In this document: positions 8,990-34,245 of the stretch, in pieces | Position numbering within the stretch: position 1 is the first letter of the stretch | Layout of the letters: every line of letters starts with the position of its first letter | Assembly (NCBI RefSeq): GCF_014641945.1 | Contig: NZ_BMIJ01000005.1 | Location: forward strand, 222,718-286,717 | From: Marinobacterium zhoushanense | GTDB taxonomy: Bacteria > Pseudomonadota > Gammaproteobacteria > Pseudomonadales > Balneatricaceae | Reading direction: 5' to 3' | Length of the DNA stretch: 64,000 nucleotides | Position numbers and translations under genes: made by a program | The notes under the pieces: generated by a model | Told to the model about the DNA's origin: nothing | The model's database searches: none | The model's input: the letters and a program-made list of their open reading frames with translations, nothing else

Positions 8990-10720
8990 TCACATTAGCG
9001 GGTTGGCGAGCAGGTAGATCAGCGCGCAGGCCAGCAGGGCTGACACCCCCTGCCAGAACAACACCGGGTTGCGTTCGATCAGCGGCGGCCGGGTCTTGTT
9101 CAGGTACTCCCGGTTGGGATGGCGCAGATCGTAGATAAACTCCGATAGGTCGTCATAGCGCTTCTCCGGGCTTGGATGGGTCGCCCGTTTCAGTGCTTCG
9201 TCCACCCAGGCCGGTATCTCGCGCTCGTCATCCAGTATCGAGTCATACCTGAGTTTCTGCTGCGCCTTGGCGGTACGGCACTTGGCCACCTGGGTGCCAT
9301 AGGGGAAACGGCCGCTGAGCATCTGGTAACAGATCACGCCGAGCGAGAACTGGTCCGAGCGCTCGCTGCCGGGAAAGCCGAGAAAGTACTCCGGTGCCGT
9401 GAACAGTGCGGTACCGAGTACCTGTTCCTGGCGGCTGACCACTGTCGCTTCGGCGATGCCGGCGACCCGGGTGGCACCGAAATCGATGATCTTCACCGTG
9501 CCGTTGCGGTCGATCATGATGTTGTCCGGACGCAGGTCCTGATGCAGCATCTCCATGCGGTGGAAAGCGCGCAGACCGCGGGCGATCTGTTCGACGATCG
9601 ACCGCACGGTCTCGATATCGGGGCGCGGGTTGTCGATCAACCATTGGCGCAGGGTCTGGCCCTCAATGTACTCCATCGCCGTGTACAGGTAGTGGCGATT
9701 GCGGCCGGGCGACTCCGCCTTCAGCACGTGGGCGCTGTTGATGCGCCGCGCTATCCACTCCTCCAGCAGGAAACGCTCCAGGTAGTCCGGGTCGTCGGCC
9801 AGGTCGATGGCCGGGGTTTTCAGCGCCACCGGGTCGCCACTGGCCATATCCACAGCCAGGAACACATGGCTGCGGCTGGTGGCGTGCAGTTCGCGGACGA
9901 TCTCGTAACCATCGAACTGCATGCGCGGTTCCAGCATCGGCGGCAGCGGCAGCTGCTCGATCTGCAACTGCAGCTCGGCGTGTTCCGTCCCGGGCACCTG
10001 GTCGACACGGACGATCTGCAGGGTCAGGTTGTCACCGCTGCCCCGTTCCAGCGCGTGCTTGGCGATCTGTCGGGCGGCGTTGTCGAGGGATGTCGGGTGC
10101 TCACGCAGGGTGTTGAGCAGAAACTGGGTGTCGCTGTGTTCGTAGATGCCGTCGGTGGCGAGGATAAAGGTATCCCCGGGCTTGACCGACAGGGCCTGGT
10201 AGTCGATCTCGAGCTGATCGTCGATACCGAGCGCCCGGCTCAGGTAGCTCTCCTGCTGGGAGACCCAGAGCCGATGATCCTTGGTCAGCTGTTCCAGCGC
10301 ATGCTCGTGTACACGGTAGATGCGCGAGTCGCCGACATGAAAAATGTGCGCGGTGGCGGCTTTGATCACCATTGCGCTGAGAGTACAGACGTAGCCTTTA
10401 TCCTTATCGTAACGGTAGTCGCTGCGCCGGGTCTGGGAGTGCAGCCAGGAGTTGGTGGCCGCTATCACCCGCTCGGCGGCAGTGCGCACGGTCCAGGCTT
10501 CCGAGGTACAGAAGTAATCGTCGAGAAAGGATTTGACCGCGGCGGCGCTGGCGATCTGGCTGACGCTGCTCGAGCTGATGCCATCCGCTATCGCCAGGGC
10601 TGCGCCCTTGAGACTCAGTTGCGGCTCTTTTGGGATCAGCGCACCGTGAAAATCCTGATTCAGCTCTTTTCGGCCCTTGTCCGAATACTGGCCAACGCTG
10701 AGCTTGAGGTGACTGGTCAT
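8990..10720 (-). CDS. PP2C-type phosphatase / Ser-Thr protein kinase fusion with C-terminal TM anchor
   Basis: N-terminal PP2C motifs (ADGISS, ATDG, SGDN); kinase VALK, HQDLRPDN and DFG motifs; C-terminal hydrophobic helix; co-directional between the FNT gene and cynS. Confidence 0.8.
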   Translation of the reverse strand: MTSHLKLSVGQYSDKGRKELNQDFHGALIPKEPQLSLKGAALAIADGISSSSVSQIASAAAVKSFLDDYFCTSEAWTVRTAAERVIAATNSWLHSQTRRSDYRYDKDKGYVCTLSAMVIKAATAHIFHVGDSRIYRVHEHALEQLTKDHRLWVSQQESYLSRALGIDDQLEIDYQALSVKPGDTFILATDGIYEHSDTQFLLNTLREHPTSLDNAARQIAKHALERGSGDNLTLQIVRVDQVPGTEHAELQLQIEQLPLPPMLEPRMQFDGYEIVRELHATSRSHVFLAVDMASGDPVALKTPAIDLADDPDYLERFLLEEWIARRINSAHVLKAESPGRNRHYLYTAMEYIEGQTLRQWLIDNPRPDIETVRSIVEQIARGLRAFHRMEMLHQDLRPDNIMIDRNGTVKIIDFGATRVAGIAEATVVSRQEQVLGTALFTAPEYFLGFPGSERSDQFSLGVICYQMLSGRFPYGTQVAKCRTAKAQQKLRYDSILDDEREIPAWVDEALKRATHPSPEKRYDDLSEFIYDLRHPNREYLNKTRPPLIERNPVLFWQGVSALLACALIYLLANPLM

Positions 10721-10780
10721 ATACTCAGATGCCGAAAAAAGCCCCAGCCACCCGCAGGTGACCAGGGTTTGGAAGGAAGG

Positions 10781-11623
10781 TTATACGGTTGCCGGCTTGG
10801 ACGGAGCGGAGGTCGGAATCTCGCGCTTGGAACCGGTACGCACGTGAGTGGTGTACAGGGTCAGGCCGGTGAACGCCAGGCCGCCGACCAGGTTGCCCAG
10901 AGCGGTCGGGATCTCGTTCCAGATGAAGTAGTCGGCGATGGAGAAGTTACCGCCCATGATCATGCTGAACGGGAACAGGAACATGTTGACCACGGAGTGC
11001 TCGAAGCCCATGAAGAAGAACAGCATGATCGGCATCCACATGGCGATCACCTTGCCGCTGACATGGGTGGAGATCATCGCACCGACTACGCCGAGGGAGA
11101 CCATCCAGTTACACAGCATGCCGCGGATGAAGATGGTGAACCAACCCTCTACGCCATAAGCAGCGTAACCAACCGTACGGGATTCGCCGATCTTGGCGAC
11201 TTTCTCGGCGATGGCGCCGCCGTCGGTGTTGTAACCCATGGTGAAGATGAACGACATCATCACCGCCACGGTGAAGGCTCCGGCGAAGTTACCGACGAAT
11301 ACCAGCCCCCAGTTGCGCAGAATCTGACCCGGGGTGACACCGGGGCGCTTGTCGAGCCAGGCCAGCGGGGTGAGCATAAACACACCGGTCAGCAGGTCGA
11401 AGCCCATCAGGTAAAGCATGCAGAAACCGACCGGGAACAGGATCGCGCCGATCAGGAACACGCCGGTTTGTACTGCGACAGTGACGGCAAACACTGCTGC
11501 CAGAGCCAGGATGGCACCGGCCATATAGCCACGGATCAGGGTGTCGCGGGTGGACATGTAGATCTTGGATTCACCGGCATCCACCATCTTGGTTACAAAT
11601 TCTGCGGGAATTAAGTAAGCCAT
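10781..11623 (-). CDS. Formate/nitrite transporter (FNT) family channel, NirC/FocA-like
   Basis: 280 aa, 6 TM segments, FNT signature regions; RBS GAGG upstream. Confidence 0.85.
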   Translation of the reverse strand: MAYLIPAEFVTKMVDAGESKIYMSTRDTLIRGYMAGAILALAAVFAVTVAVQTGVFLIGAILFPVGFCMLYLMGFDLLTGVFMLTPLAWLDKRPGVTPGQILRNWGLVFVGNFAGAFTVAVMMSFIFTMGYNTDGGAIAEKVAKIGESRTVGYAAYGVEGWFTIFIRGMLCNWMVSLGVVGAMISTHVSGKVIAMWMPIMLFFFMGFEHSVVNMFLFPFSMIMGGNFSIADYFIWNEIPTALGNLVGGLAFTGLTLYTTHVRTGSKREIPTSAPSKPATV

Positions 11624-11691
11624 ATTTTTGCCTCGTTCGACGTTAAGGGATCACACACAAAGGGTTCTAACCGACTGAGAGCAACAAAAAA

Positions 11692-11741
11692 ATGGCGTCC
11701 ACACATGCCCCGCCTTTTGCAGGTGCAGTGATGGACGCCAT
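11692..11741 (-). terminator. Leader hairpin with T-tract (candidate attenuator/terminator) upstream of the FNT operon
   Basis: Perfect 10-bp inverted repeat ATGGCGTCCA…TGGACGCCAT with a ~30-nt loop; on the minus strand it is followed by TTTTTTT. It lies ~60 nt upstream of the FNT start codon and ~230 nt downstream of the preceding gene. Confidence 0.45.
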
Positions 11742-11969
11742 TATCCAAAATTCTCAGCTTGTCAGATTTGAGCCAGCTTCAGCTCAAATACTGAATCGGA
11801 TATAGCAGTCAGCGTGCCAAAACCTGTTTTTTGTGAAAATCCCAAATAAAGTCAAAGTGTTACATTATCATTCTGGTTTTGTTGTCAGTCTGTGCCTAGA
11901 TCAAAAATGGTGCGCAGCCGGTCAGGGCTGCGCAGTTAAGGTTCATTTTATATGGTTATTAAGCGGGCG

Positions 11970-14537
11970 TTACGGCTGGGGCAGGGCGGTTTTGAGGTCA
12001 ACGCCAGGGCCGTGCGCCAGGCGGATAGGTGCTGACATCAATCGCCGCTGCAGCGCAGCCGCCAGCAACCCCAGCGCGATGCCACCGCCGATCGCCAGGC
12101 CGTCGATCAGCGGCGAGTGCCCCTCCAGCCCCAGCATCGGCATCAGCACCTCGGGTACCAGGCGGTGCAACAGATAGATCGCGAAGGCCGCCTGCGCCAG
12201 CCGCATCAGCGGTCGCAGGCTCCAGTCGGGCAGCGGAATGCTCGGTACCAGACAGAGCAGCGCGAGTATGCCGAGCAGGCTCATGTACTTGATCCAGCCG
12301 CCATACCAGTTGCCGCCCAGATATGCGGCCAGCGGCATGATTGCGCAGCCGAGGACGATCACCAGCCAACGCTGGCGGCGCGTCTGCGCCGCACTAATGC
12401 ACCAGCCGAGGGCGAACAGGTAGAGTACCCAGGGCACGGTGAACAGCGCCCGTCCGTTCATCGGCCAGAGCTGCGGAATAGTGATCCGCAGTAGTAGTGC
12501 CAGTGCCAGCAGTCCGAGGCCGAAGGTGAAGGGGGACAGCTTGGCCAGTTGTCGGCGCAGCGGCGGTATCAGGAAGGGCAGGACCACCAGCAGCGTGATC
12601 TGCACATAGGCTTCCACGAACCAGTACAGGAACGGCAGCATCTCATGGGTCGAGGGCTTGGTCAGCGCGAAGTTTCCCATCAGTAGCGCCGATACCCAGG
12701 GGACCTCGCCCCAGGCCAGGCTATAGCCTGCCAGCACGATGTAATAGGGAATGAGTACACCGAGCAGCGGGGCAAAATAGGTCCCCCAGTTGCCGGCGCA
12801 GAGCGCCTTCCAGCGGAACGATGAGACGCTCATCCCCATCAGCATCACCATCGCCGCCGCGCCGCCATATACCGGCCAGTGGGTCTGGTGTGTGACGACC
12901 ACCGCCAGGATTGCCAGTACTCGCGTCACCAGATCGGTAGGCAAGCGGTTGCGCTGACCGGGGCGGGCGTTCTCCAGTTCGGCGATCGGCATCCGTTCCC
13001 AGCCCGTCGGTACGCCGCCGAGCCGTTCCTCCAGGGCCAGAGTCAGCTCCACATGGCACAGGGAGTCTCCGCCGAGGCTGGAAAAGCTGTCGTCGGGACG
13101 CACGGCACGCGGTGCAAAGCTGGCGCGAAAGGCGGTCAGTACACCGCCGCTGGCTGTTTTCTGTCCCTGTTGTGCGCGCAGTGCCGGATAATCGATCTTG
13201 CCGTTGGCGCGCCGGGGCAGTGCGCGGAGCGGATGAACACGCACATGTTGGGCGCCGATTCCGGCCAGTTGCGCTGCCTTAGCTTGGACCTCCTCCGCTG
13301 CCGGGGCCGCACCCGCCATGCCGATATGGATCTGCCGGTCGTCCCCCCAGACCGCGACCTCCGGGGCGAAGTGGGCCAGGGCGCGCTCCAACGCGTCATG
13401 ACCGATGCGCAGGCCCGCGATCTTGGACATGCGCGACAGGCGGCCGGTGATACGGTAGATCCCGGCGCGATCGCGCCGGGCCAGGTCGCCGGTAGCCAGT
13501 TCATCGAGTTCAGCGCCATGGGCCAACTCCCGGTATCCCTCGGCATAGCCCATCATCACATTGGGCCCGCGGTAGATCAGTTCGCCCTCTGCTTCCGCGG
13601 TTTTAATCTCGGTTCCCTGTGCGTCACGCAGAGCCAGCGCGCCACCGGGGATGGCGATGCCGATCGCGTCGGGCTTATCCAATGCCATTTCCGGGGGCAG
13701 CCAGGCGATACGCGCGGTGGCCTCGGTCTGACCATACATGACCACGAAGCGCCCCTCATGACGCGCCATCAGCTTGGCCCAGTGCACCACCTTGGCCGGC
13801 TCCATGGCACCGCCGGCCACGGTCATGAAACGCAGGCTGGCAGGCAGATGATCGGCCAGGCCTGCGCTTTCCAGCAGGGTGAAGTGGTGTGGTACGCCCG
13901 CCAGATTGGTGACGCCACTGCGCGCCAGGGCCTGGTTGAATCCGGCGCTGAGCACCGACTCCCCGTGCAGCCAGAGCGATGCGCCCTGGAGCAGATGAGA
14001 GTGCAGCACCGACAGGCCATAGGAGTAGTGCAGCGGCAGTATCAGCGCGGCGCGGTCATCCGCCTGGATATCGAGGTACTCGGCGATAGATCCGGCATTG
14101 GCCTCCAGCGCCTGACGCGAGAGTCGTACGCCACGCCCCTGGCCGGTACTGCCGGAGGTCTGCAGCAGTAGCGCCAGCTCAGGGTGAGGCTCGGCGGCTT
14201 GCCAGTCGTGCCGCTCCGGCTCCCAGCGACCGTTGCGACGGTAGAAGCTCAGGGCTGGACGAAAGCGTTGGCTGAGCGAGCGCATCGTATCCGGGGTATC
14301 GACCGGCACCGGCATCACGGCATGGCCTGCGGCCAGGGTGCCGACATAGGCGGCAATTGCCTGAGGGTCGGAGGCCGCCTCGATCGCGATCAACTGCGGG
14401 GTATCGTATTGGTCGAGGGAAGCCGCAAAGCGGGCAGCTTGTTCGGCCAGCTCGGCATAGCTGAGCAGGATACCGCTGGCATCCAGTAAACAGGGTTGAG
14501 CCCCGAGAGCTCGGAAACGATCCAGGTCGAACAGCAT
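11970..14537 (-). CDS. Tri-domain protein: AMP-dependent adenylation domain + carrier-protein (phosphopantetheine) domain + C-terminal integral-membrane acyltransferase (Acyltransferase_3/OafA-like)
   Basis: Adenylation motifs (TSGSTG, YGQTE, GELIYRGPNVMMGY, RITGRLSRMSKIAG, NGKIDY), a carrier-protein serine motif (LGGDSL), then ~330 aa with ~10 TM helices opening with an AT3-like R-x-D-x-x-R…H signature. Confidence 0.7.
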   Translation of the reverse strand: MLFDLDRFRALGAQPCLLDASGILLSYAELAEQAARFAASLDQYDTPQLIAIEAASDPQAIAAYVGTLAAGHAVMPVPVDTPDTMRSLSQRFRPALSFYRRNGRWEPERHDWQAAEPHPELALLLQTSGSTGQGRGVRLSRQALEANAGSIAEYLDIQADDRAALILPLHYSYGLSVLHSHLLQGASLWLHGESVLSAGFNQALARSGVTNLAGVPHHFTLLESAGLADHLPASLRFMTVAGGAMEPAKVVHWAKLMARHEGRFVVMYGQTEATARIAWLPPEMALDKPDAIGIAIPGGALALRDAQGTEIKTAEAEGELIYRGPNVMMGYAEGYRELAHGAELDELATGDLARRDRAGIYRITGRLSRMSKIAGLRIGHDALERALAHFAPEVAVWGDDRQIHIGMAGAAPAAEEVQAKAAQLAGIGAQHVRVHPLRALPRRANGKIDYPALRAQQGQKTASGGVLTAFRASFAPRAVRPDDSFSSLGGDSLCHVELTLALEERLGGVPTGWERMPIAELENARPGQRNRLPTDLVTRVLAILAVVVTHQTHWPVYGGAAAMVMLMGMSVSSFRWKALCAGNWGTYFAPLLGVLIPYYIVLAGYSLAWGEVPWVSALLMGNFALTKPSTHEMLPFLYWFVEAYVQITLLVVLPFLIPPLRRQLAKLSPFTFGLGLLALALLLRITIPQLWPMNGRALFTVPWVLYLFALGWCISAAQTRRQRWLVIVLGCAIMPLAAYLGGNWYGGWIKYMSLLGILALLCLVPSIPLPDWSLRPLMRLAQAAFAIYLLHRLVPEVLMPMLGLEGHSPLIDGLAIGGGIALGLLAAALQRRLMSAPIRLAHGPGVDLKTALPQP

Positions 14538-14711
14538 GGTGGATGTACTACAAAAAATGGGTGATTAGAGGTAGATGACAATATTAAGACAAATGAGAAT
14601 TAATCGTGAATAGAAATTTTCAACTTACCCACCGTGCAAGTTGAAAACACTTGGTGTGCACCAAGATGGCGCGCGGTCCTTGTCGATGGCCGGAAATGAA
14701 GCGCAGCTCGA

Positions 14712-16028
14712 CTAGTGCGGCAAGCCGTTGCTCTTGCCCTTCAGCTGCTCGATGTCGGCGATCAGCTTCTGCGCGACCGCTGCCAGCGAGCGGTTTTGCG
14801 CCATTGAGGTTTGCTGCAGCAGCCGGTAGGCCTGCTCTTCGGTCAGCCCGCGGAACTGCATCAGCAGCCCCTTGGCACGTTCCAGCGTCTTGCGATCCGA
14901 CAGCGCCTGTCGGGCGGCCGTGAGTTCGTCGTGCATCTGTTTCAGCCCCTCAGCCTGTTGCCTGACCAGGCCGTAGAGCGAGTGCACCCAGTCGCTGCTG
15001 GTGGCGCCCGAGCTGCCAGCTTCCGTCGGCGCCGGGGCCTGTTCCGGCGCGAGCAGCATGGTCAGCGGCGAGGCACCGGGCTCATGCAGGGAGGCGATCA
15101 GCTCCAGGCTGTCGTGATGTTTTTTCAGCTCCTTGTTCGCCTCGCGCACGCGCTGCTGACTCAATTGCAGCAGGGCATCGGCCAGTTGCCGCTCCAGTTG
15201 TTGCATCCTGTCGATCCGCCGGGTGGCCGCGTCATACCAGACCTCGCTGATCTCGGACGGCAGTCCGGTACCGGGTTGGACACGGGCGATCAGCAGACGC
15301 AAGCGTAGAAACTCCAAGGTCTCTTCGTGGTTTTCCAGTTCACGCCAACCGTCTATTGGAGCGGCTTGCGCAAACTCCTCGAAGGTGTGGAAGCTTTGCT
15401 GCTGGCTGTCGACCAGGTCAGACAACCGGTGCAGCAGCGCTTGATCGAACTCACCCGCGGCGAAGCCGATCACCGCCCAGGCCCGCTCCTGTCCTGCGTA
15501 CTCCTTGCCCTGCATGAAATTGAACATGGCCACCAGCGCGCGGGTGATCTCGGGATCGTCGGAGATGTCGGCGGCTTCGAAGATCACCGACAGCAGGGCG
15601 GTTATCAGGCGATTGAAGGCTTGGGTACTCTCGGTGGCAGTCAGCGCCCGTTGGCCGATCTGCTCACGCAGGGCTTGAAGGCCGTCCAATCCATGCAGCG
15701 CATAGGCGATATTGTTGAACAGGCGTGCACTGCCGACCCGGGTCCAGCTTTCGATATCCAGTTGCTCAAGTCGGCACCTGAAGCCTTGTTCGGCGTGCAG
15801 AGCCGTTGGGATCTGCTGCAGGCGCTGGCGAGCGAAACGCACGCCTTTAGAGGCAAGAAACACGTTGGATAACCCGCGCTCGCGCTGCAGCTCATGGATC
15901 AGGTTGCTGACCTGGGTCACCAGTTCGCAACTGGCCATCAACTGGCGCAGCAGGGCGATCTCCGAGCGCTTGGAGGCGAGGAAGAAGGTTTCGGTTGCCA
16001 GGGCGTTGCCGGTCATCGACTGATCCAT
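14712..16028 (-). CDS. NasR-like nitrate/nitrite-sensing antitermination regulator (NIT domain + C-terminal ANTAR domain)
   Basis: 438 aa; C-terminal ANTAR-like helix region (…LERAKGLLMQFRGLTEEQAYRLLQQTSMAQNRSLAAVAQKLI); N-terminal region matches the NIT sensor domain of NasR. Confidence 0.75.
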   Translation of the reverse strand: MDQSMTGNALATETFFLASKRSEIALLRQLMASCELVTQVSNLIHELQRERGLSNVFLASKGVRFARQRLQQIPTALHAEQGFRCRLEQLDIESWTRVGSARLFNNIAYALHGLDGLQALREQIGQRALTATESTQAFNRLITALLSVIFEAADISDDPEITRALVAMFNFMQGKEYAGQERAWAVIGFAAGEFDQALLHRLSDLVDSQQQSFHTFEEFAQAAPIDGWRELENHEETLEFLRLRLLIARVQPGTGLPSEISEVWYDAATRRIDRMQQLERQLADALLQLSQQRVREANKELKKHHDSLELIASLHEPGASPLTMLLAPEQAPAPTEAGSSGATSSDWVHSLYGLVRQQAEGLKQMHDELTAARQALSDRKTLERAKGLLMQFRGLTEEQAYRLLQQTSMAQNRSLAAVAQKLIADIEQLKGKSNGLPH

Positions 16029-16534: not shown

Positions 16535-17527
16535 GTGGAACTGGTGTGTCCCGCCGGGAGTTTTCCCGCCCTGAAGGCGGCCGTGGATAACGGTGCCGAC
16601 GCCGTCTACTTCGGCTTTCGCGATAAAACCAACGCGCGTCAGTTTGCCGGTCTCAACTTCGACCGCCGCAAAGCGGAGAAGGGGATCGACTACGCCCGCA
16701 GCCGAGGCGTCAAGGTGCTCTGTGCTATCAACACCTATCCCCAGCCCGAGGGCTGGTCCAGCTGGCAGGCGGCAGTGGATATGGCCGCCGACCTGGGTGT
16801 CGATGCGCTGATCGCTGCCGATATGGGAGTATTGGGCTATGCCGCCGAACGCCATTCCGCGCTGCGTCTGCACTTGTCGGTACAGGGGTCGGCCACCAAT
16901 TACGAGGCGCTGAACTACTACCGTGACCAGTTCGGCATCCAGCGTGCTGTGCTGCCCCGGGTGCTGTCACTGGCGCAGGTGGAACATCTGGCCGCGCACA
17001 CCCCGGTGGAGCTGGAGGTATTCGCCTTCGGCAGCCTTTGTATCATGGTCGAGGGGCGCTGTTATCTATCCTCCTACCTGACCGACGAATCCCCCAACAC
17101 CTGCGGCGCCTGCTCGCCGGCCAAGGCCGTGCGCTGGCAGGAGACCGCGCGCGGGCTGGAGTCACGCCTGAACGAGGTGCTGATTGACCGCTATGCCGAT
17201 GGCGAAAAGGCCGGTTATCCCACCCTGTGCAAGGGGCGTTTCGAGGTGGAGGGCAACGTCTACCACGCCATGGAAGAACCGACCAGCCTCAACACTCTGG
17301 ACCTGATCCCGGAGCTGAAACGGATCGGTATCCAGGCGGTCAAGATCGAGGGTCGGCAGCGCAGCCCCGCCTACGTGTCCCAGGTCACCCGGATCTGGCG
17401 CGAGGCGCTCGACAACGCCGCAACGCAGGGTGCCTTCAAGGTACAACCGCAGTGGGACCGCGGGCTGGAGGCGCTGTCCGAGGGCAGCACCACCACTATC
17501 GGTGCCTATCATCGCAGCTGGCAGTAG
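16535..17527 (+). CDS. ubiU: UbiU, U32-peptidase-family O2-independent ubiquinone hydroxylase subunit
   Basis: 330 aa; near-collinear match to E. coli UbiU/YhbU including the conserved Cys residues (FGSLCIMVEGRCYLSSY…PNTCGACSP…TLCKGR). Confidence 0.85.
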   Translation: MELVCPAGSFPALKAAVDNGADAVYFGFRDKTNARQFAGLNFDRRKAEKGIDYARSRGVKVLCAINTYPQPEGWSSWQAAVDMAADLGVDALIAADMGVLGYAAERHSALRLHLSVQGSATNYEALNYYRDQFGIQRAVLPRVLSLAQVEHLAAHTPVELEVFAFGSLCIMVEGRCYLSSYLTDESPNTCGACSPAKAVRWQETARGLESRLNEVLIDRYADGEKAGYPTLCKGRFEVEGNVYHAMEEPTSLNTLDLIPELKRIGIQAVKIEGRQRSPAYVSQVTRIWREALDNAATQGAFKVQPQWDRGLEALSEGSTTTIGAYHRSWQ

Positions 17528-17535
17528 GGGGATAG

Positions 17536-18432
17536 ATGGACAAGGCATTGAAACTGACCCTGGGGCCGCTGCTCTACTTCTGGCCCAAGCAGGATGTGTA
17601 TAACTTCTACGCCGAGATGGCGGAGCAACCGCTGGATACCGTCTACCTGGGCGAGACGGTTTGTTCCAAGCGGCGTCAGCTCAAGCTCGACGACTGGATC
17701 GAGATCGGCCGTGACCTGCGCGCCTGCGGCAAGCAGGTGGTGCTCTCCAGCCTGGCGCTGCTGGAGGCAGAGTCGGAACTGAAGATGCTGCGCCGCATCT
17801 GCGCCAACGGCGAATTCCAGGTCGAGGCCAACGATATGGCCGCGGTGCAGTTGCTGAGCAGCCAAGGGGTGGAGTTCGTCACCGGCCCGTCGATCAATAT
17901 CTACAACCTGGGTACGCTCAAGCGACTCTACAACAGCGGCATGCGCCGCTGGGTGATGCCGGTGGAGCTGTCGGCGCAGACGCTGGAGCAGCTGCTGCAG
18001 CAGGTCGCGCAGGATGGCTCTCTGCCCGAGTTGGAGACCGAGGTGTTCGCTTACGGCTGCCTGCCGCTGGCCTATGCCGCCCGCTGCTTCACCGCCCGCT
18101 ACCGCAACCTGCCCAAGGACAACTGCAACTTCTGTTGTATCGAGTACCCGGACGGCATCCCGGTGCGCTCGCAGGAGGGGCGCGAGTTGTTCACGATGAA
18201 CGGCATTCAGACCCTGTCCGGGGAGCACTACAATCTGGAGCACGAGCTGGATGCCATGCAGGTCATGGGCGTGGACAGGGTGCGGTTGAGCCCGCAGCGG
18301 CAGCGGATGGCAGCTGTAATCAAGCGTTTCAGTCAGCGCCTGAAGGGTGAACAGAAAGATACCATCCCACTGCTCAGCGCCGGTCAATGCAACGGCTACT
18401 GGTACGGGTTACCGGGCATGGACAGGGTGTAG
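17536..18432 (+). CDS. ubiV: UbiV, U32-peptidase-family partner of UbiU
   Basis: 298 aa U32 protein directly downstream of ubiU; conserved Cys cluster (CSKRRQ…[13 protein letters not shown]…CNFCC). Confidence 0.85.
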
Positions 18433-18546: not shown

Positions 18547-19326
18547 GTGCGCATGACGGTGCGGTGGTCGCTGTTGTATCCCTCGGTAAAGAAGATGCAG
18601 GTACGTGTCATTGGCACGGCTTTTCTGCTGGGTTGCCTGTTTGTCCCCGAGGTGCACAGCGCCCCCCAGGTGGCGGCTGATTCGACAGCGCAGCAGTACC
18701 GGCTTCTGGCCCGTATCGACCGGTTGGAGGCGGAAGAGAAGGGCGATTCGGTGATCGCGTTCCGCTCCGAACTATTGGAGGCGGCATCATCGGATCCGGC
18801 TATCGCGGCGATGCTGGAGGAGACGCGGCATCAATTCGAGACGCGTCGGCAAGCGTTGCAGCAGGTGCAGCAGCAGTTGCGCGACCGGATACAGCAGGCG
18901 GCAGCGGCCATCGACGAGCAGCAGCAACAGCTGAGTAGCAACCGAAATCGGATAGCGCTGATCAGCGACAAGTTAAAAAGTCTGCACGCGGCGATAGAAA
19001 AGGGGCTGATCGGGCAAAACTATGTCGACGCCCTGCGCAGTGAGGTTGAGCAACTGGAAGCGCTCTGCGGTGAAATGGAGGACGGTATCGCGCAGGCCAA
19101 GTGGAGCGTTGCCGAATACCAGCTCGAGCAATCGCGCCTGGAGTTGGACCGGCGCCGAGTGGCGCAGGCCGAATTGGAGGCGCTGACGGCGAAGTTACTG
19201 AAGTCAGCACCGAATCAGATGGCGTCTCCAGACTCCCGAGCAGCGGCTCAGGCAGATGAGACACCAGATTCGAGCGGAAGCTCATCCCTGCAGACGTCGC
19301 AGAGCGTGCAAACCACGCTGGAATAG
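18547..19326 (+). CDS. Secreted coiled-coil protein (hypothetical); likely true start near 18595
   Basis: Signal peptide (…FLLGCLFVPEVHSAP) followed by a Q/E/R/L-rich heptad-like sequence. Confidence 0.45.
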   Translation: MRMTVRWSLLYPSVKKMQVRVIGTAFLLGCLFVPEVHSAPQVAADSTAQQYRLLARIDRLEAEEKGDSVIAFRSELLEAASSDPAIAAMLEETRHQFETRRQALQQVQQQLRDRIQQAAAAIDEQQQQLSSNRNRIALISDKLKSLHAAIEKGLIGQNYVDALRSEVEQLEALCGEMEDGIAQAKWSVAEYQLEQSRLELDRRRVAQAELEALTAKLLKSAPNQMASPDSRAAAQADETPDSSGSSSLQTSQSVQTTLE

Positions 19327-19788
19327 CGGCGGCATCTCGCTCCAGTCCACACTATCCAGAAGATTCTTTACCGCCAGTCCCAGCTCGGTATCGCCCTCGA
19401 TCAGCAGGCGGCGCTGGAAGAACAGAGTGTCCGGATCCTCCTCCAGCGTCGCCAGGCGGAGAAACTCGCCTGAGTCGCCGCGGATCCAGGCATCTGGACT
19501 CTTTTTAGAACCGCTGGCCGGCTCCACCTTTAACTGGCCATCGCGATAGCCAAACGCCAGACGCAGCCCCAGATCCCTAACCTCCAGCCCCAGTTGGCGC
19601 TGCTCCATAAAGTCGAACTCCTCATCCTCCAGCTGCTGCCGGAATAACCGGTTCAATAACCTTTCCAACAGCTGTCGTTTGAGCCGAAACGGGATATGTG
19701 GCTCGGTCCTGCTGAACAGGCTACGCAGATTGGGAGACAGGCTGGGCAACAGGCGAAAGGGAAGCGGGGGGCGGGGGAGAAAGATCAT
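19282..19788 (-). CDS. ubiT: UbiT, SCP2-domain accessory factor for anaerobic ubiquinone biosynthesis
   Basis: Aligns with E. coli UbiT/YhbT (…FRLKRQLLERLLNRLFRQ…DPDTLFFQRRLLIEGDTELGL…). Confidence 0.8.
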   Translation of the reverse strand: MIFLPRPPLPFRLLPSLSPNLRSLFSRTEPHIPFRLKRQLLERLLNRLFRQQLEDEEFDFMEQRQLGLEVRDLGLRLAFGYRDGQLKVEPASGSKKSPDAWIRGDSGEFLRLATLEEDPDTLFFQRRLLIEGDTELGLAVKNLLDSVDWSEMPPLFQRGLHALRRLQG

Positions 19789-19933: not shown

Positions 19934-21682
19934 TTGGCGGATAGCGAGGCGGCAATGGATAGATACGCGAACGTGGAGGTGAGAAGCACAGTCGACGAGT
20001 ACCTGGAGCGCAGCGACTGGCGGGTCAACGCCAACGCCAACCAGGGCTATTCGCTGGGCGGGCTGATCCTGAATGTGTCTGGTAAGGTGATCGCCAACTA
20101 CTGGCTGAACGAGGTCTACACCCCGTTGATCGGCATGGCGCATCGCGAAGGGGACCTGCATATCCACGATCTGGACATGCTATCCGGATACTGCGCCGGC
20201 TGGTCGCTGCGCACCCTGCTGTTCGAGGGACTCAACGGCATTCCGGGGCGGCTGGAGAGCGGTGCGCCCAAGCATCTATCCAGCGCCGTGGGGCAGATCG
20301 TCAACTTCCTCGGCACGCTGCAGAATGAGTGGGCCGGAGCCCAGGCCTTCAGCTCCTTCGATACCTACCTGGCGCCGTTCATCCGCAAGGACAACCTGGC
20401 CTACGAGCAGGTACTGCAGTGCATGCAGGAGCTGATCTACAACCTCAACGTACCCTCGCGTTGGGGCACCCAGACCCCGTTTACCAACCTGACCTTCGAC
20501 TGGCACTGCCCGGACGATCTGAAGCAGCAGATACCGGTCATTGCCGGCGAGGAGATGCCGTTCAGCTACGGCGAACTGCAGGCCGAGATGGACATGATCA
20601 ACCGCGCCTATCTGGAGGTGATGGACGCGGGTGATGCCAAGGGGCGGGTGTTCACCTTCCCGATCCCGACCTACAACATCACCAAGGATTTTGACTGGGA
20701 CAGCGCCAACGCCGAGCTGCTGTTTCGGCTCACGGCCAAGTACGGACTGCCCTATTTCCAGAACTTCATCTGCTCCGACCTGGAGCCGAACATGGTGCGC
20801 TCCATGTGTTGCCGCCTGCAGTTGGACCTGCGCGAGTTGCTCAAACGCGGCAACGGCCTGTTTGGCTCCGCCGAACAGACCGGCTCCATAGGCGTGGTTA
20901 CGATCAACTGCGCGCGGCTGGGCTACCTTTACAACGGCGACTGGCAGGGGCTTTACGAGCACCTGGACCACCTGCTGATACTGGCCAAGGAGTCACTGGA
21001 ACTGAAACGGCGCCGTATCCAGCAGTTGATGGACGAGGGGTTGTTCCCCTACACCAAGCGCTACCTGGGCACCCTGCGCAATCACTTCTCCACCATCGGC
21101 GTGAACGGCATCAACGAGATGCTGCGCAACTTCAGCGATGACCACATCGATATCTCGTGTGACGAGGGGCAGGCGCAAGCGTTGAGGCTGCTGAACCATA
21201 TCAACGAACGCCTGACCCAGTTCCAGGAGCAGACCGGCCACCTGTACAACCTGGAGGCGACACCGGCGGAGGGCACCACCTACCGTTTCGCCCGCGAGGA
21301 TCGCAAGCGCTGGCCCGATATCCTCCAGGCCGGCACCCGCGAGCACCCCTACTACACCAACTCCAGCCAACTGCCGGTGGGGTATACCGACGATCCCTTC
21401 CTGGCGCTGGAGAAGCAGGATGCGCTGCAGACCCGCTATACCGGCGGCACTGTGCTGCACCTGTACATGCGTGAGCGGATCTCCAGCGTGCGCGCCTGCA
21501 AGCAGATGGTGAAGCAGGCATTGAGCAACTTCGCGCTGCCCTATATCACCATCACCCCGACCTTCTCCATCTGTCCACACCACGGCTACCTGGCCGGGGA
21601 GCATGAATACTGTCCGCGCTGCGACGAAGAGCGACTGCAGCAGAAACTCACACAGAATCAACAAGCACCCGCCTGCACCTGA
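19934..21682 (+). CDS. nrdD: Anaerobic ribonucleoside-triphosphate reductase NrdD, catalytic body lacking the C-terminal glycyl-radical domain
   Basis: Class III RNR core sequence; C-terminal metal-site residues (CPHH…CPRC); ORF stops before any RxxGY glycyl-radical motif; probable start ATG 19955. Confidence 0.85.
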   Translation: MADSEAAMDRYANVEVRSTVDEYLERSDWRVNANANQGYSLGGLILNVSGKVIANYWLNEVYTPLIGMAHREGDLHIHDLDMLSGYCAGWSLRTLLFEGLNGIPGRLESGAPKHLSSAVGQIVNFLGTLQNEWAGAQAFSSFDTYLAPFIRKDNLAYEQVLQCMQELIYNLNVPSRWGTQTPFTNLTFDWHCPDDLKQQIPVIAGEEMPFSYGELQAEMDMINRAYLEVMDAGDAKGRVFTFPIPTYNITKDFDWDSANAELLFRLTAKYGLPYFQNFICSDLEPNMVRSMCCRLQLDLRELLKRGNGLFGSAEQTGSIGVVTINCARLGYLYNGDWQGLYEHLDHLLILAKESLELKRRRIQQLMDEGLFPYTKRYLGTLRNHFSTIGVNGINEMLRNFSDDHIDISCDEGQAQALRLLNHINERLTQFQEQTGHLYNLEATPAEGTTYRFAREDRKRWPDILQAGTREHPYYTNSSQLPVGYTDDPFLALEKQDALQTRYTGGTVLHLYMRERISSVRACKQMVKQALSNFALPYITITPTFSICPHHGYLAGEHEYCPRCDEERLQQKLTQNQQAPACT

Positions 21683-21723
21683 CGGGGCGGCACTAAAACC
21701 AAAGCAAAACCAGGTTAAAGCAA

Positions 21724-21787
21724 GGCCAAACCACACTAGGGCCAAACGAAACTAAGGCCAAACCAAATTAAGGCCAAACCAAATTAA
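21724..21787. repeat. 4 x 16-nt tandem direct repeat (GGCCAAACCAAATTAA-like) in the nrdD / mini-ORF spacer
   Basis: Units at 21724-39, 21740-55, 21756-71, 21772-87; the last two identical; A-rich against a GC-rich background; ends at the SD GGAGAG. Confidence 0.8.
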
Positions 21788-21798
21788 GGAGAGTCATC

Positions 21799-21948
21799 AT
21801 GAACGCAGCCAAACTACTGAAACCGGAAGAGCGTCAGCGTTGCGAAGTCTGGACCCGGGTGATGGGTTACCACCGGCCGGTATCCCAGTTCAACGCCGGC
21901 AAACGCTCGGAACACCGGGAGCGTCGCCACTTCGTCGAGAAAGGCTGA
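21799..21948 (+). CDS. Stand-alone 49-aa glycyl-radical domain of class III RNR (NrdD C-terminal module encoded separately)
   Basis: MNAAKLLKPEERQRCEVWTRVMGYHRPVSQFNAGKRSEHRERRHFVEKG carries the NrdD glycyl-radical signature R-V-x-G-Y…FNxGK…R..HF. Own SD (AAGGAGAG, 7 nt spacing); stop overlaps the nrdG start (ATGA). Not in the supplied ORF track because it is under 60 aa. Confidence 0.7.
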   Translation: MNAAKLLKPEERQRCEVWTRVMGYHRPVSQFNAGKRSEHRERRHFVEKG

Positions 21949-22670
21949 TGGCAATGCGGCTGCGCACACCGAAGGAGCTGCGGGTCAGCGGCATGACACC
22001 GCTGACCACAATTGACTTCCCGGACCACCTGGCCTGCGTACTCTATACCCAGGGCTGTCCGCTGCGCTGCCGCTACTGTCACAACCCCCAGCTGATCCCC
22101 TTTGGCGATCAGCTGGCGTCCCTATCCTGGCTGGAAATTGAAGAGTTCCTGCACAGGCGACAGGGTCTGCTCGAAGCCGTCGTGTTCAGCGGTGGAGAGC
22201 CAACCCTGCAGCCCGCCCTGGCCGCGGCGATGGCCGTGGTCAGGGAGCTGGGTTTCAAGGTCGGGCTGCACACTGCCGGGGTCAGCCCCGAGCGCTTGGC
22301 GCAGCTGCTGCCGCTGGCCGACTGGGTCGGCCTCGATGTCAAAGCCCCATTCCACCGTTATCCACAGGTCACCGGTCGCAACCACCAGGCGCAGCAGAAC
22401 CGCAACAGCCTGGCACTGTTGCTGGCGTCGGATGTCCGCTTCGAATGCCGCACCACCGTGGACTGGCGCCTGTTTACGCCGGACGAACTGCACGACCTGG
22501 CCCGCCAGTTGGCCGAGCTTGGCGTACAACGTTACGCGGTGCAGATCAACCAGGCCCGCAACTGCCTCGATCCCGAGCTGGAGCAGACGGTCACTCTATC
22601 GACCGAACAGCTGAGGGTTCTGAAACAGAAGTTGGCTGCGCTGTTCCCGGTATTTGATTGGCGGGAGTAG
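21948..22670 (+). CDS. nrdG: Anaerobic RNR activating enzyme NrdG (radical SAM)
   Basis: CPLRCRYCHNP radical-SAM motif; ~240 aa from ATG 21948. Confidence 0.85.
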   Translation: MAMRLRTPKELRVSGMTPLTTIDFPDHLACVLYTQGCPLRCRYCHNPQLIPFGDQLASLSWLEIEEFLHRRQGLLEAVVFSGGEPTLQPALAAAMAVVRELGFKVGLHTAGVSPERLAQLLPLADWVGLDVKAPFHRYPQVTGRNHQAQQNRNSLALLLASDVRFECRTTVDWRLFTPDELHDLARQLAELGVQRYAVQINQARNCLDPELEQTVTLSTEQLRVLKQKLAALFPVFDWRE

Positions 22671-23121: not shown

Positions 23122-23122
23122 T

Positions 23123-23818: not shown

Positions 23819-23905
23819 CGACAGAGTCTCTAACCAAGGCGATCCGGGGAAAAACGGCGGCCTTCGTTGTTACTGATAACCAATGAAGGCCGCTCAATCC
23901 GGAGT

Positions 23906-24601: not shown

Positions 24602-24691
24602 GACGATACCTCCTGCTGTTCTGACAGGGGCAGTATTGGTCTTGCGTTAATCATCGTAAATTGCGAATTTATTCAAAGTAAATTTGCATAA

Positions 24692-25585: not shown

Positions 25586-25647
25586 GCGGGTTCGGTCGAT
25601 CTCATGCCTTTAAGTCGACTATTGGCTTGGTAGAGGTCGGCAAGGAT

Positions 25648-27399
25648 CTATTTCAACCAGAACGCGATCAGCGTGAACAGCGCGATCATGAACCAGACCA
25701 GCGACATCAACTGCCAGAACAGCAGCGCGTTGGGGTGCTTCTGCTCCGCCTCGCGCGGAACCAGGAACTCCGGGTTGGGCTGGGTCAGGTCCTGCATCAT
25801 CCGGTCGATGCAGTCATAGCGCTGGCTGGGGTCGATGGCCAGCGCCTTCTCCAGCGCGCGGTCGAACCAGACCGGGATGATCGGGTTGTGGCGGTCGGCC
25901 GGGATATAGGCGAGCTTCTGCAGCTGCTGCGGCTTGTCGCAGTTCTCCAGCCCGTTGCCGTAGGGCAGGTGGTGGGTGAACAGCTCGTAGGTGATCGCGG
26001 CCAGTGAGAACATATCGCCGCGGATACCGGTATTCTGGCCCAGACGGAACACCGGGTCGGAGTAGTTCAGCGTGCCCAGCACCCGGTCGCGCTTGAGCGG
26101 GACGAAGATCTCGTTGATCCCGGCCACGAACACCGAGCCGAAATCGACGATTACCGCGCTGTTGTCGGGGCGGACCATGATATTGCTCGGCTTCAGGTCC
26201 TGGTGCAGCGTCTCACGCTGGTGGAACGCCTTCAGGCCATCGGCGATCTGCTTGATCAGCTCGATCGCCAGCGCCGGTTTCGGTATCGGGTTCTGTTTCA
26301 TCCAGCGGTCCAGTGATACCCCCTCCACCGGTTCCATCAGGTAGTAGAGGAAGGTCTTCGGGCGGTGGGCGATATGGATACGCACCACGTGATCGTTGCT
26401 GATGCGGCTACCGACCCACTCCTCCATGATGAAGCGTTCGATATAGGCGGCGTCATCCTCGAAGTTGCGCGACGGCGTCTTCATCACCCAGCGCTCGCCG
26501 CTCTCGATCTCCTGTACCTGGTACAGCTGGCTGCGGCTGCTGGCGTACAGCTCCTCTTCGATCAGGTAGCCGTCGATCTTCATCCCCGGTTCCAGCTCCG
26601 GCGGGAAGGGCAGCGCGGTGAGCTGTTCGGTGAGCTGGTCCAGTGAGGCGTCGTGCAGTTGATCGACGCGGACCAACTGACAGCTCAGGTTATCCCGGCT
26701 ACCGGCCCGGTAGGCGGCGTTGACCAGTGCCTCGCAACAGCTCTTCAGCTCGCCGCTGCTGCTGGCCAGGCGCAGCAGCGTTTCCGGATCCAGCGAGTCA
26801 TGCACGCCATCGGTGGTGAGCAGAAACAGGTCGCCCGGTTCGATCTCCAGCGGCCGGTAGTCGATCTCCAGGTGGGTATCCATGCCCATGGCGCGGGACA
26901 GGCAGCCCTCACGCTTGTTGAGCTGGGTGACATGATCCTCGGTCAGCTGGTCGAGACGACCGTCCCGAATCAGGTAGATACGGCTATCGCCGATATGGAA
27001 CAGGTGCGCGGTGCGCGACTTGATCACCAGCAGCGACAGCGTACAGACGTAGCCGCGGGTGCTGGAGAGGTACTCATGGCTGCGTGAGTAGAGGGTGCGG
27101 TTGATCGAGGTGAGCACCTTCTGCGCGGACTTGCCCACGGTCCAGATATCGGGGGTGTCGAAATAGTCGCTGAGAAACTCGCGCACACAGATTTCCGCCG
27201 CCTCGCCACCCGCTTCGGCGGTGCTGACGCCATCGGCGATCACCGCCACCGCGCCCTTGGTGGTCAGCAGGTTGCCCTCGGGCTGAACGAAGCCGAGGCA
27301 GTCCTCGTTTCGCTCCTTGCGCCCCTTGTCGCTGCACTGTCCGACGGACAGCTGGATCTCATCCCGTAGATACATCGCCTGCAGGTTCAGGTTGCTCAT
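25648..27399 (-). CDS. Second PP2C-phosphatase / Ser-Thr kinase fusion with C-terminal TM anchor (paralog of 8990..10720)
   Basis: PP2C motifs (ADGVS, TTDG, SRDN); kinase VVMK, HQDLKPSN, DFG; C-terminal hydrophobic helix; 80 nt downstream of narK on the same strand. Confidence 0.8.
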   Translation of the reverse strand: MSNLNLQAMYLRDEIQLSVGQCSDKGRKERNEDCLGFVQPEGNLLTTKGAVAVIADGVSTAEAGGEAAEICVREFLSDYFDTPDIWTVGKSAQKVLTSINRTLYSRSHEYLSSTRGYVCTLSLLVIKSRTAHLFHIGDSRIYLIRDGRLDQLTEDHVTQLNKREGCLSRAMGMDTHLEIDYRPLEIEPGDLFLLTTDGVHDSLDPETLLRLASSSGELKSCCEALVNAAYRAGSRDNLSCQLVRVDQLHDASLDQLTEQLTALPFPPELEPGMKIDGYLIEEELYASSRSQLYQVQEIESGERWVMKTPSRNFEDDAAYIERFIMEEWVGSRISNDHVVRIHIAHRPKTFLYYLMEPVEGVSLDRWMKQNPIPKPALAIELIKQIADGLKAFHQRETLHQDLKPSNIMVRPDNSAVIVDFGSVFVAGINEIFVPLKRDRVLGTLNYSDPVFRLGQNTGIRGDMFSLAAITYELFTHHLPYGNGLENCDKPQQLQKLAYIPADRHNPIIPVWFDRALEKALAIDPSQRYDCIDRMMQDLTQPNPEFLVPREAEQKHPNALLFWQLMSLVWFMIALFTLIAFWLK

Positions 27400-27479
27400 C
27401 CGGCCATCCTCCTATTCTCCCCAAACACGACCGGGTGACACCGTTACCGATGCCACCCGGACCCTGCCTGTGTTGAGAC

Positions 27480-28952
27480 CTATTCCACGCTGATCAGCTC
27501 GACCGTACCGTCCGGCAGCACCTCGGCCATCTGGCCGCTGGGCTCGTCCATGAACTGCACCAGCAGGAACACCAGGCCCGCGGAAGCACCGATCACCATG
27601 AAGAAGGTGGAGTAGTCGACGAAGCTCAACACGGTCAGGTAGCACACCGCACCGACATTGCCGTAAGCCCCGGCCATACCGGCAATCTGCCCGGTCATGC
27701 GGCGCTTGATCAGCGGCACCACGGCGAATACCGCACCCTCACCGGCTTGGACGAAGAAGGAGCAGGCCATGGTGGCGACTACTGCCGCGGGGATCCACCA
27801 GCCGCCGTCGATCCGGCTCAGCACGAAGTAGCCTACAGCCAGACCCAGGATCAGTACGCTGAGGGTCTTGCGACGACCGATACGGTCGCTCAGGTGACCG
27901 CCGGTGGGACGGGCGACCAGGTTCATGAAGGCGAAGCCGGAGGCGAGCAGACCCGCCTTGACCGGATCCAGACCCTCGAAGGTCTCCAGGAAGAACAGCG
28001 GCAGCATGGAAACCACCGCCAGCTCGGAGCCGAAGGTAACGAAGTAGGCCACGTCGAGTACCGCCACCTGCTTGAACTTGTAGCGCTGGATCTCCGGCAC
28101 ACCCTCTTTCAGGTGCTCCTCGTTGACGTGGTAGATCGCCCGCAGCTGGAACAGGAACAGCCCGACCAACACGGCATAGATTGCCTTGGTGCCGAACTCA
28201 TCGAGCAGGCCCAGGTTGGTCGGCGACAGTTTCCAGGTCAGCACCGCCAGCGCGGCGTACATCGGCAGGTTCATCAGGATGTAGAAGACGAAGTCGCCCT
28301 TGCTGGTCACCTCCAGGCCGCCATGTTTCTTCGGCTTGAAGTAGGTGGAGCCCTTCGGGGTGTTGCGTGCCACGCGGTAGAACACGAAGCCGTACAGGAT
28401 CGCCATTACACCGGCAGTGGCCAGTGCGTAACGCCAGCCGTTGTCACCGCCGTAGAGCAGCGCGAGGGTGGGCAGGGTCATGGCGCCGGCGGCGGAACCG
28501 AAGTTACCCCAGCCGCCGTATACCCCCTCGGCCACACCGACCTGCTTGGCCGGGAACCACTCGCCGACCAAGCGGATACCGATCACGAACCCGGCGCCGA
28601 TGAAGCCGCTCAGGAAACGCATGATCGCCAGCTGCTCATAGGTCTGCGCCGCCGCAAAACCGAGGCAGATAAAGCCGCCGATCACCAGCAGCATGCTGTA
28701 CACCACCCGCGGGCCGTACTTATCCACCAGCGTACCGATGACGATACGCGCCGGGATCGTTAGCGCCACGTTAAGAATCAACAGCGCCTTGATCTCGGGG
28801 CCGCTCAGATCGAACGCCTCCTTGATATACGCCATCATCGGCGCATGGCTGAACCACACCACAAAGGTGAGGAAAAACGCGAACCAGGTAACGTGGAGGG
28901 TCTTGATCTTGGGATCGCCAAAATCGAGCAACCTCAGATTGTTGGTAGACAT
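27480..28952 (-). CDS. narK: NarK-type MFS nitrate/nitrite transporter
   Basis: 490 aa, 12 TM segments, nitrate/nitrite-porter signature regions; RBS AGGAG. Confidence 0.85.
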
Positions 28953-34241: not shown

Positions 34242-34245
34242 TGTT

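Follow-up and report, generated by a model that had tools for sequence, protein, structure and literature searches.

Two proteins that each join a PP2C phosphatase to a Ser/Thr kinase on a single polypeptide, called STK1 and STK2 here, are encoded in a 64,000-nucleotide stretch of the Marinobacterium zhoushanense genome (contig NZ_BMIJ01000005.1, positions 222,718 to 286,717; hereafter the window). Each gene is co-directional with, and lies just downstream of, the gene of a transporter: STK1 follows an FNT-family channel, and STK2 a 490-residue member of the NNP/NarK family of major facilitator superfamily (MFS) porters, called NarK490. The pairing of transporter and fusion is far beyond chance and recurs in hundreds of bacterial species, and we consider, with moderate confidence, that each fusion serves its upstream transporter as a dedicated accessory regulator. 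What is understood of the control of nitrate and nitrite metabolism in bacteria concerns almost wholly transcription and RNA (NtrBC, NasR/NasST, NarXL, FNR), and we know of no post-translational regulator of nitrate or nitrite transport in Proteobacteria; the family offers an experimental handle on this kind of control.

In both proteins, Pfam assigns the N-terminal half to PP2C_2 and the C-terminal half to Pkinase, and with 41% identity across their full length (E = 2e-153) the two are paralogs; the architecture that the original prediction had read from the open reading frames is thus confirmed, together with the FNT (PF01226) and NarK-family (TIGR00886) genes upstream and the single C-terminal hydrophobic helix of each fusion. 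STK1 is 100% identical to a RefSeq protein of M. zhoushanense and STK2 92% identical to a RefSeq Marinobacterium protein. An AlphaFold2 model of STK2 (pLDDT 87, pTM 0.72) resolves the PP2C domain, a flexible linker, the kinase domain and one terminal helix, with the boundaries given in Table 1. In an alignment of 122 fusion sequences from three clades (27-92% identity; residue numbers are those of STK2), the interfacial tryptophan of this helix (W562, in a Phe-Trp pair) is invariant, while the rest of the membrane segment is poorly conserved, and the distance from this residue to the C-terminus is 18-26 residues, with a single outlier of 109 in the third clade (STK3-type). A stretch this short points to a tail anchor, with cytoplasmic catalytic domains and no periplasmic sensor domain; alignment and model together show the fusions as predicted tail-anchored proteins whose one C-terminal helix holds them in the inner membrane. 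No recognisable ligand-binding or periplasmic domain is found in the Pfam scan, the alignment, or the AlphaFold2 model.

Conservation of the fusion-transporter pairs

For comparison, 168 loci were fetched, 80 of them species-representative loci obtained with an STK2-type profile, 80 metagenome loci obtained with an STK1-type profile, and several more with Pfam-annotated genes; the gene directly upstream of each fusion was classified by tblastn. STK2-type fusions have the same 490-residue NarK subtype directly upstream in 77 of 79 loci, and STK1-type fusions an FNT in 65 of 76; in nine more of these 76 the position is taken by cynS, with the FNT just beyond it in all seven that have enough sequence. 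A third clade, from Methylocaldum, has a NasA-type MFS transporter upstream and nirB downstream in two of three loci. In a fourth clade, about 40% identical, the fusion follows an APC-family permease, on a Burkholderia plasmid within a glutamate-synthase-like cluster, or lies next to glnT-glxBCD-like genes; its loci include a plasmid of Burkholderia sp. PAMC 26561 and a megaplasmid of Acidithiobacillus caldus. These genes, for a type III glutamine synthetase and for glutamate-synthase-like subunits, look like a cluster of the methylamine, or N-methylglutamate, pathway.

The FNT-fusion pair is found also in Marinobacter, Methylocaldum, Polaromonas, Bradyrhizobium, Azospirillum, Cupriavidus, and Acinetobacter, so that the pairing of fusion and transporter spans the Gamma-, Beta-, and Alphaproteobacteria. 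That the transporter comes first and the fusion second, separated by a median of 73-93 nt, holds across the three proteobacterial classes, the four transporter families, and plasmids. The genes 3' of the fusion differ (cynS, nirB, and genes for GGDEF or methyl-accepting chemotaxis proteins), cynS belonging to the module in about one quarter of related loci; the transporter is the sole constant neighbor. In several genomes with two or more paralogous fusions, each has its own transporter next to it: the window, Methylocaldum (locus L084), and three further loci (L077, L155, L167). The Methylocaldum locus holds nrtABC-FNT-STK1-cynS and MFS-STK3-nirB inside 10 kb; L077 has divergent duplicates of NarK490-STK2, L155 an STK3-type fusion beside FNT-STK1, and L167 a NarK490-fusion pair beside FNT-STK1.

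The module also travels. A 17-kb mobilizable Psychrobacter plasmid, pA17P2, and Acinetobacter plasmids (for example pA of Acinetobacter junii) carry a module of the FNT-fusion-cynS type as cargo; given this, the FNT-STK-cynS unit appears to be self-contained. The plasmid modules, arranged as FNT-fusion-cynS or cynS<>FNT-fusion, are flanked by insertion sequences, which suggests horizontal spread of a nitrite/cyanate uptake module. Two single loci may be added: on a plasmid of Skermanella sp. TT6, as a rare exception, the fusion follows a gene annotated as 'glycosyl transferase family protein', beside a divergent narK-nasC-nirB cluster, and in Thalassotalea ganghwensis the signature of a Tn7-like CRISPR-associated transposon (TniB, TniQ, Csy2, Csy3, Csy4/Cas6f) lies about 2.6 kb downstream of NarK490-STK2.

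The association is asymmetric. A fusion is almost never found without a transporter, whereas about half of the plasmid-borne NasH-type FNTs have no fusion: of the plasmid-borne FNTs that share 60% or more identity with that of the window, 24 have an adjacent fusion and 27, in Moraxella, Paracoccus, Leisingera, Rhizobium, Ciceribacter, and Burkholderia, do not. An accessory regulator would be expected to show such a pattern. Genes joining transporter and kinase into one protein are absent among the listed homologs, judged by their lengths (about 530-660 residues), although no systematic search was made for them. The original prediction had argued, from the two pairs of the window, for a functional link rather than chance, and had named synteny in other genomes as a check; the near-obligatory, clade-specific synteny, seen in all three of these proteobacterial classes and on mobilizable plasmids, supports the link.

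The transporters and their proposed regulation

The FNT of the window is 63-69% identical to Paracoccus FNTs and scores below the equivalog cut-offs of FocA and NirC; its closest solved structure is LCIA/NAR1.2 (of the algal NAR1 type, E = 5e-28), which is far nearer than FocA or NirC. In Paracoccus ferrooxidans, a fusion-less copy sits in the order nasT-nasS-nasA-nasB-nirD-FNT-nasC, and this place inside the nasTS-ABG-FNT-C cluster of Paracoccus identifies the subfamily as NasH; the FNT of the window is thus predicted to be an assimilatory nitrite channel of the NasH type. A fusion-less FNT of Moraxella shows the arrangement cynS<>FNT-nirBD. NasH is a bidirectional nitrite transporter, without which nitrite builds up to toxic levels, and for NarK-like proteins Goddard et al. 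name post-translational modification as one possible switch of transport mode (PMC5217062).

NarK490 is only 18-26% identical to NarK1, NarK2, NasA-type transporters, and Bradyrhizobium NarK and represents a divergent NNP subfamily, with the nitrate-signature motifs GGWGNFG and GAYGNVG in place. Its particular feature is a central insertion of about 100 residues (195-295), which holds two extra hydrophobic stretches and a 17-residue segment strongly conserved in 75 orthologs. This segment of the central loop is rich in Ser and Thr and specific to the subfamily; candidate acceptors in NarK490 are T198, S202, T203, T216, and S217. The insertion possibly gives a 14-helix topology, unusual for NNP transporters, and the C-terminal tail carries a conserved DEPSGQ.AEV..DGT.V.

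In the mechanism we propose, kinase and phosphatase would jointly set the phosphorylation of cytoplasmic Ser or Thr residues on the transporter or on a partner bound to it; the fusion may phosphorylate the transporter directly. STK1 would gate the flux of nitrite through the NasH-type FNT, and STK2 that of nitrate or nitrite through NarK490, within seconds and layered over a slower transcriptional control, which would consist of NtrC/sigma-54 and NasR antitermination for FNT-STK1-cynS and of FNR/ANR for NarK490-STK2. Intracellular nitrogen status, redox state, and the conformational state of the transporter are candidate signals for tipping the balance. As nitrite is toxic and channels of the NasH type are bidirectional, a cell would benefit from gating that acts fast. 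If the mechanism holds, it would represent a new design of bacterial Ser/Thr signaling, in which opposing enzymes are fused, sensor-less, and turned to a single membrane partner, and it would bear on how nitrogen uptake, the excretion of nitrite, and the production of N2O/NO are modeled for bacteria of sea and soil.

That ammonium and oxygen rapidly shut off the transport of nitrate and nitrite is classical physiology, for which we know of no mechanistic explanation in Proteobacteria. Put more broadly, and more tentatively, the fusions could form a widespread class of transporter-dedicated, tail-anchored switches that diversified together with no fewer than four transporter families (NasH-type FNT, NasA-type NNP, NarK490, and APC permease) and that supply the missing post-translational mechanism of this shut-off, by ammonium in the assimilatory modules and by oxygen in the FNR-controlled ones. 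The family lends itself to genetics, with one gene beside its presumed target in hundreds of species and even on small plasmids, and has culturable hosts in Marinobacterium, Marinobacter, Methylocaldum, Azospirillum, Acinetobacter, and probably Pseudomonas.

Several points weigh against dedicated regulation by phosphorylation. A comparison of 66 kinase-linked with 10 kinase-less NasH-type FNTs yields no clean kinase-specific cytoplasmic Ser or Thr: almost all of those conserved in the linked FNTs are equally conserved in the kinase-less ones, and a modest enrichment is seen only at positions 7, 11, and 19, the first of which is Ala in the FNT of the window. Both canonical glycines of the kinase nucleotide-binding loop are gone, so that ATP binding is not guaranteed. 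A kinase and a phosphatase on one chain would need reciprocal regulation to avoid a futile cycle, and the fusions show no domain or ligand site that could provide it. Phosphorylation, interaction, or phenotype data on any family member were not found in the open-access literature. Finally, the distances between fusions correlate significantly with those between transporters (Mantel r = 0.65 and 0.50), a result that includes no control gene and therefore speaks for co-inheritance only; we do not use this mirror-tree correlation as proof of partnership. The residues that do separate linked from unlinked FNTs cleanly, 169 (M/V), 181 (G/A), and 184 (I/M), are all membrane-embedded and could reflect lineage or a docking surface for the tail anchor.

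It is the null result on the acceptors that keeps alive a different reading, in which the transporter is a co-sensor: the sensor-less fusion would read the conformation or flux of the adjacent transporter, in the manner of trigger transporters, and act on targets in the cytoplasm other than the transporter, for instance proteins of nitrogen regulation or enzymes of assimilation. The obligatory synteny supports this reading and dedicated regulation equally; the fusions have no periplasmic or recognisable ligand-binding domain of their own with which to sense, and a docking surface would suit the three membrane-embedded FNT positions better than a phosphosite. However, the downstream genes vary and no second partner gene is conserved in the modules; the membrane segment itself is poorly conserved except for its interfacial Trp; and travel on small plasmids favors a substrate encoded within the module, even if a universal host protein could still serve. 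We therefore regard the co-sensor reading as rather unlikely, though it is the best of the alternatives.

Catalytic residues and comparison with known systems

The alignment supports the competence of both enzymes. In the PP2C half, the family motifs (xED, DGxxG, TDG, DN) are present in both proteins, and the metal-binding motifs D33, D56-G57, D197-G198, and D236-N237 are invariant in all 122 sequences. The same holds in the kinase half for K307 (the β3 lysine), E326 (the αC glutamate), D401 and N406 of the catalytic loop, D419 (the DFG aspartate), and R527 (the arginine of subdomain XI). As far as sequence can tell, the catalytic residues of the kinase are intact and speak against a pseudokinase, in line with the original prediction, and both enzymes are probably catalytically competent. 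The kinase motifs named in that prediction hold for HQDLRP/HQDLKP, DFG, and the β3 lysine; the β3 motif of STK2 is WVMK and not the predicted VA(L/M)K, and the loss of the glycines from the glycine-rich loop had been overlooked.

The deviations from the canonical kinase are clade-specific. In the STK1 and STK2 clades, the glycine-rich loop GxGxxG is replaced by A-[ST]-S-R-S-[HQ], which has no glycines and an invariant Arg-Ser; the Ser that PknB has at the third glycine position is the sole feature kept. The third clade reads S-x-G-R-Y-S instead. The catalytic loop is HQD in 81 of 82 STK1- and STK2-type sequences and HRD in 40 of 40 of the third clade, where it occurs with DLG. STK2 carries SDP at the usual position of APE, and the Ser directly after its DFG is the only Ser or Thr in the activation loop. 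A kinase whose catalytic aspartate is not preceded by arginine (non-RD), and which in STK2 has no other acceptor in the activation loop, is unlikely to be controlled by activation-loop phosphorylation; the phosphatase more likely opposes the kinase on a shared substrate than resets the kinase itself.

These same deviations could mean that the kinase is non-catalytic or atypical, that is, a pseudokinase scaffold or nucleotide sensor with the PP2C as the only enzyme that matters, or a catalyst of another reaction. The glycine-free loop, HQD in place of HRD, and the SDP of STK2 all fit such a role. Yet pseudokinases normally lose the very Lys, Glu, Asp, Asn, DFG Asp, and subdomain XI Arg that are invariant here, the altered loop positions hold small residues with the Ser of PknB-type kinases retained, and non-RD kinases are commonly active; an atypical kinase is thus quite unlikely.

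At the level of folds, both halves have well-known relatives. A structure search with the STK2 model finds PknB-type kinases with TM-scores of 0.79-0.84 and the phosphatases tPphA, PppA, Stp, and PstP with 0.81-0.88 (tPphA 0.87); among the top structural matches there is no solved structure of a fused PP2C-kinase. Kinases of anti-phage defense were considered and rejected, as MAD6 and PglW match in the kinase core only (NCBIfam scores of 117 against a cut-off of 460, and 65 against 990).

Among characterized systems, the pairs of Stk1/PknB with Stp1/PstP come closest: the kinase half matches PknB/Stk1 (E = 1e-31), the phosphatase half tPphA, PppA, Stp, and PstP, and opposing kinase and phosphatase are likewise encoded together. 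In those systems, however, the two are separate proteins, the kinase is a receptor with extracellular PASTA domains and an RD catalytic loop activated by loop phosphorylation, and the substrates are many, whereas the enzymes described here are fused, tail-anchored, devoid of an extracellular domain, non-RD in two clades, and associated with one transporter gene. Accordingly, they fall well short of the models for the Stk1/PknB PASTA kinase (NF033483, 174.5 and 114.4 bits against a cut-off of 450) and the Stp1/IreP phosphatase (NF033484, 107.4 and 124.8 bits against 230).

A reversible Ser/Thr phospho-switch on a nitrate transporter, as proposed here by analogy, is known from plants and fungi: Thr101 of Arabidopsis NRT1.1 is phosphorylated by CIPK23/CBL with a PP2C counterpart, and NRT2.1 and Ynt1/Npr1 of Hansenula are further cases. 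Both the kinases and the transporters are unrelated to those considered here (NRT1.1 belongs to the NPF/POT family), and the kinases are soluble, calcium-regulated, and have many targets. In cyanobacteria, the PP2C phosphatase PphA takes part in a rapid, ammonium-responsive post-translational control of nitrate uptake; by structure, tPphA is one of the best matches for the phosphatase half of the fusions, but the likeness is one of fold only, as PphA is free-standing, acts on soluble PII, and is not encoded beside a transporter. AceK and HPrK/P phosphorylate and dephosphorylate a dedicated target with one polypeptide, the balance being set by metabolites; they differ in having unrelated folds, a single active site, and a soluble form, where the fusions comprise two eukaryotic-type domains. 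Set against all of these, the fusions are a distinct variant: fused, tail-anchored, sensor-less, and apparently dedicated to one transporter.

The proteins themselves are not new to annotation, contrary to the original prediction, which had held such a fusion in nar loci not to be standard: the Prokaryotic Genome Annotation Pipeline (PGAP) routinely names the family 'bifunctional protein-serine/threonine kinase/phosphatase', as in the 92-93% matches from Marinobacterium sp. D7, and the 2013 genome paper on Pseudomonas sp. UW4 described the order nasST-nasA-ppkB-nasDEC-cobA, with a Ser/Thr kinase gene directly downstream of nasA (PMC3596284). The analogy with phospho-control of nitrate transporters in plants and yeast was already drawn there for nasA-ppkB, and the plant case has also been invoked for bacteria in PMC5217062. 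The neighborhood of ppkB resembles the MFS-fusion-nirB order of Methylocaldum, and PA1782 of P. aeruginosa, listed only as a predicted kinase, probably belongs to the PGAP-named family. A sequence link of the third clade to ppkB or PA1782 was not confirmed, the top 120 homolog matches all being from Methylococcaceae, so that their membership draws solely on gene order and the literature. A description of the FNT-linked and NarK490-linked clades, or of their division between two regulons, was not found in the open-access literature.

Predicted regulation and surroundings of the two modules

In the first operon, cynS begins 31 nt past the stop codon of STK1 with a ribosome-binding site of its own, and the FNT-STK1 spacer measures 60 nt; the unit is FNT-STK1-cynS. 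The elements upstream of the two modules (Table 1) differ in kind, and do so throughout the family: a sigma-54 motif is found upstream of 24 of 69 FNT-STK1 modules and one of 77 NarK490 modules, and an FNR-type box (TTGAY-N4-RTCAA) upstream of 52 of 77 NarK490-STK2 modules and none of the 69 FNT modules. The two modules are thus predicted to belong to different regulons, with sigma-54 and a putative antitermination leader for FNT-STK1-cynS and FNR/ANR for NarK490-STK2, a division that would make STK1 part of nitrogen assimilation and STK2 part of the anaerobic metabolism of nitrate. The 'nar loci' of the original prediction therefore fit STK2, with its FNR/ANR box, but not FNT-STK1-cynS, which is by its sigma-54 element and ANTAR-type leader an assimilatory unit.

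The leader region of the FNT (177 nt, 11624-11800) folds with a minimum free energy of -66.6 kcal/mol (z = -4.8), and none of 200 shuffled sequences is as stable. It is a putative antitermination leader of the NasR/ANTAR type, and the NasR-like protein encoded 3 kb away is likely its regulator. ANTAR target hexaloops have A at position 1; that of the leader, GAAGCU, does not. An Rfam search of positions 8000-30000 found no leader or riboswitch family, only a chance match to a CRISPR direct repeat (E = 0.66).

Hairpins in the spacers between transporter and fusion may act as attenuators that lower the expression of the fusion relative to the transporter. Both spacers contain a GC-rich hairpin, the terminator-like one of FNT-STK1 and another in that of NarK490-STK2 (around 27430-27465, minus strand). 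The scan was without statistical significance, with two terminator-like elements where 2.3 are expected in shuffled sequence, and the former is not taken as a significant feature.

Because each module shares the regulon of its own transporter, be it sigma-54/ANTAR or FNR, co-expression alone could hold the genes together, the fusion being a general signaling protein of nitrogen or anaerobic metabolism that hitch-hikes in the operon, and about half of the plasmid-borne NasH-type FNTs do work without it; but the other genes of these regulons (nirBD, nasC, narGHJI, nrtABC) are not fixed neighbors as the transporter is, its order and close spacing with the fusion are kept across classes, transporter families, and plasmids, and the clade-specific pairing inside single genomes argues for specificity, which together make hitch-hiking the least probable of the alternatives.

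Table 1. Features of the two fusion-transporter modules and their presumed regulators; positions are those of the window.
Feature	Position	Strand	Remarks
STK1	8990..10720	-	576 aa
STK1, PP2C domain	10001-10699	-	~aa 8-240; Pfam
STK1, kinase domain	9116-9913	-	~aa 270-535
STK1, transmembrane anchor	8999-9064	-	~aa 553-574
STK2	25648..27399	-	583 aa
STK2, PP2C domain	26659-27354	-	aa 16-247; Pfam and AlphaFold2 boundaries
STK2, kinase domain	25780-26568	-	aa 278-540
STK2, tail-anchor helix	25654-25734	-	aa 556-582
FNT, predicted NasH-type nitrite channel	10781..11623	-	280 aa; PF01226, 219 bits; operon gene 1
NarK490, NNP/NarK-family MFS porter	27480..28952	-	490 aa; TIGR00886, 315.6 bits (cut-off 311.7)
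cynS, cyanase	8512..8958	-	Pfam and NCBIfam above cut-off; operon gene 3
Sigma-54-type promoter element TGGCACgctgaCTGCT	11804..11819	-	196 nt upstream of the FNT start codon
FNR/ANR/DNR-type box TTGACctgcATCAA	29117..29130	-	near-consensus; 178 nt upstream of the NarK490 start codon
Leader RNA of the FNT operon	11686..11788	-	hexaloop hairpin 11767-11788, then long terminator hairpin 11692-11741 and U-run
NIT-ANTAR (NasR-like) nitrate/nitrite-responsive antiterminator	14712..16028	-	Pfam NIT 178.6 bits, ANTAR 68 bits
Terminator-like hairpin and T-run	10742..10767	-	FNT-STK1 spacer; consensus scan

The surroundings in the window are a neighborhood of nitrogen and anaerobic metabolism, with the NIT-ANTAR regulator, narXL, narK1K2, narGHJI, nrdDG, and ubiTUV-like genes. 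The last comprise two U32-peptidase genes (16535-17527 and 17536-18432) and a convergent gene for an SCP2-domain protein (19282-19788, minus strand), which resemble ubiU, ubiV, and ubiT of oxygen-independent ubiquinone synthesis; they adjoin nrdD and nrdG, for the anaerobic ribonucleotide reductase (19934-22670), and form with the FNR-boxed NarK490-STK2 module a kind of anaerobic island. Between the NasR-like gene and the FNT operon lies a gene (11970-14537, minus strand) for an 855-residue protein in which an AMP-binding (adenylate-forming) domain is joined to a membrane domain of the acyltransferase_3 type, followed by a terminator-like hairpin (11911-11934). The NarK490 module is separated from narXL by an RNA repair operon, rtcA-rtcB, and the divergent gene of its sigma-54 activator, rtcR (33231-37274). 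Three open reading frames of 156-298 residues on the plus strand (29293-29763, 30586-31230, and 37449-38345) have no Pfam match, and the GC content between 30 and 32 kb, 0.475 against about 0.60, may indicate horizontally acquired DNA.

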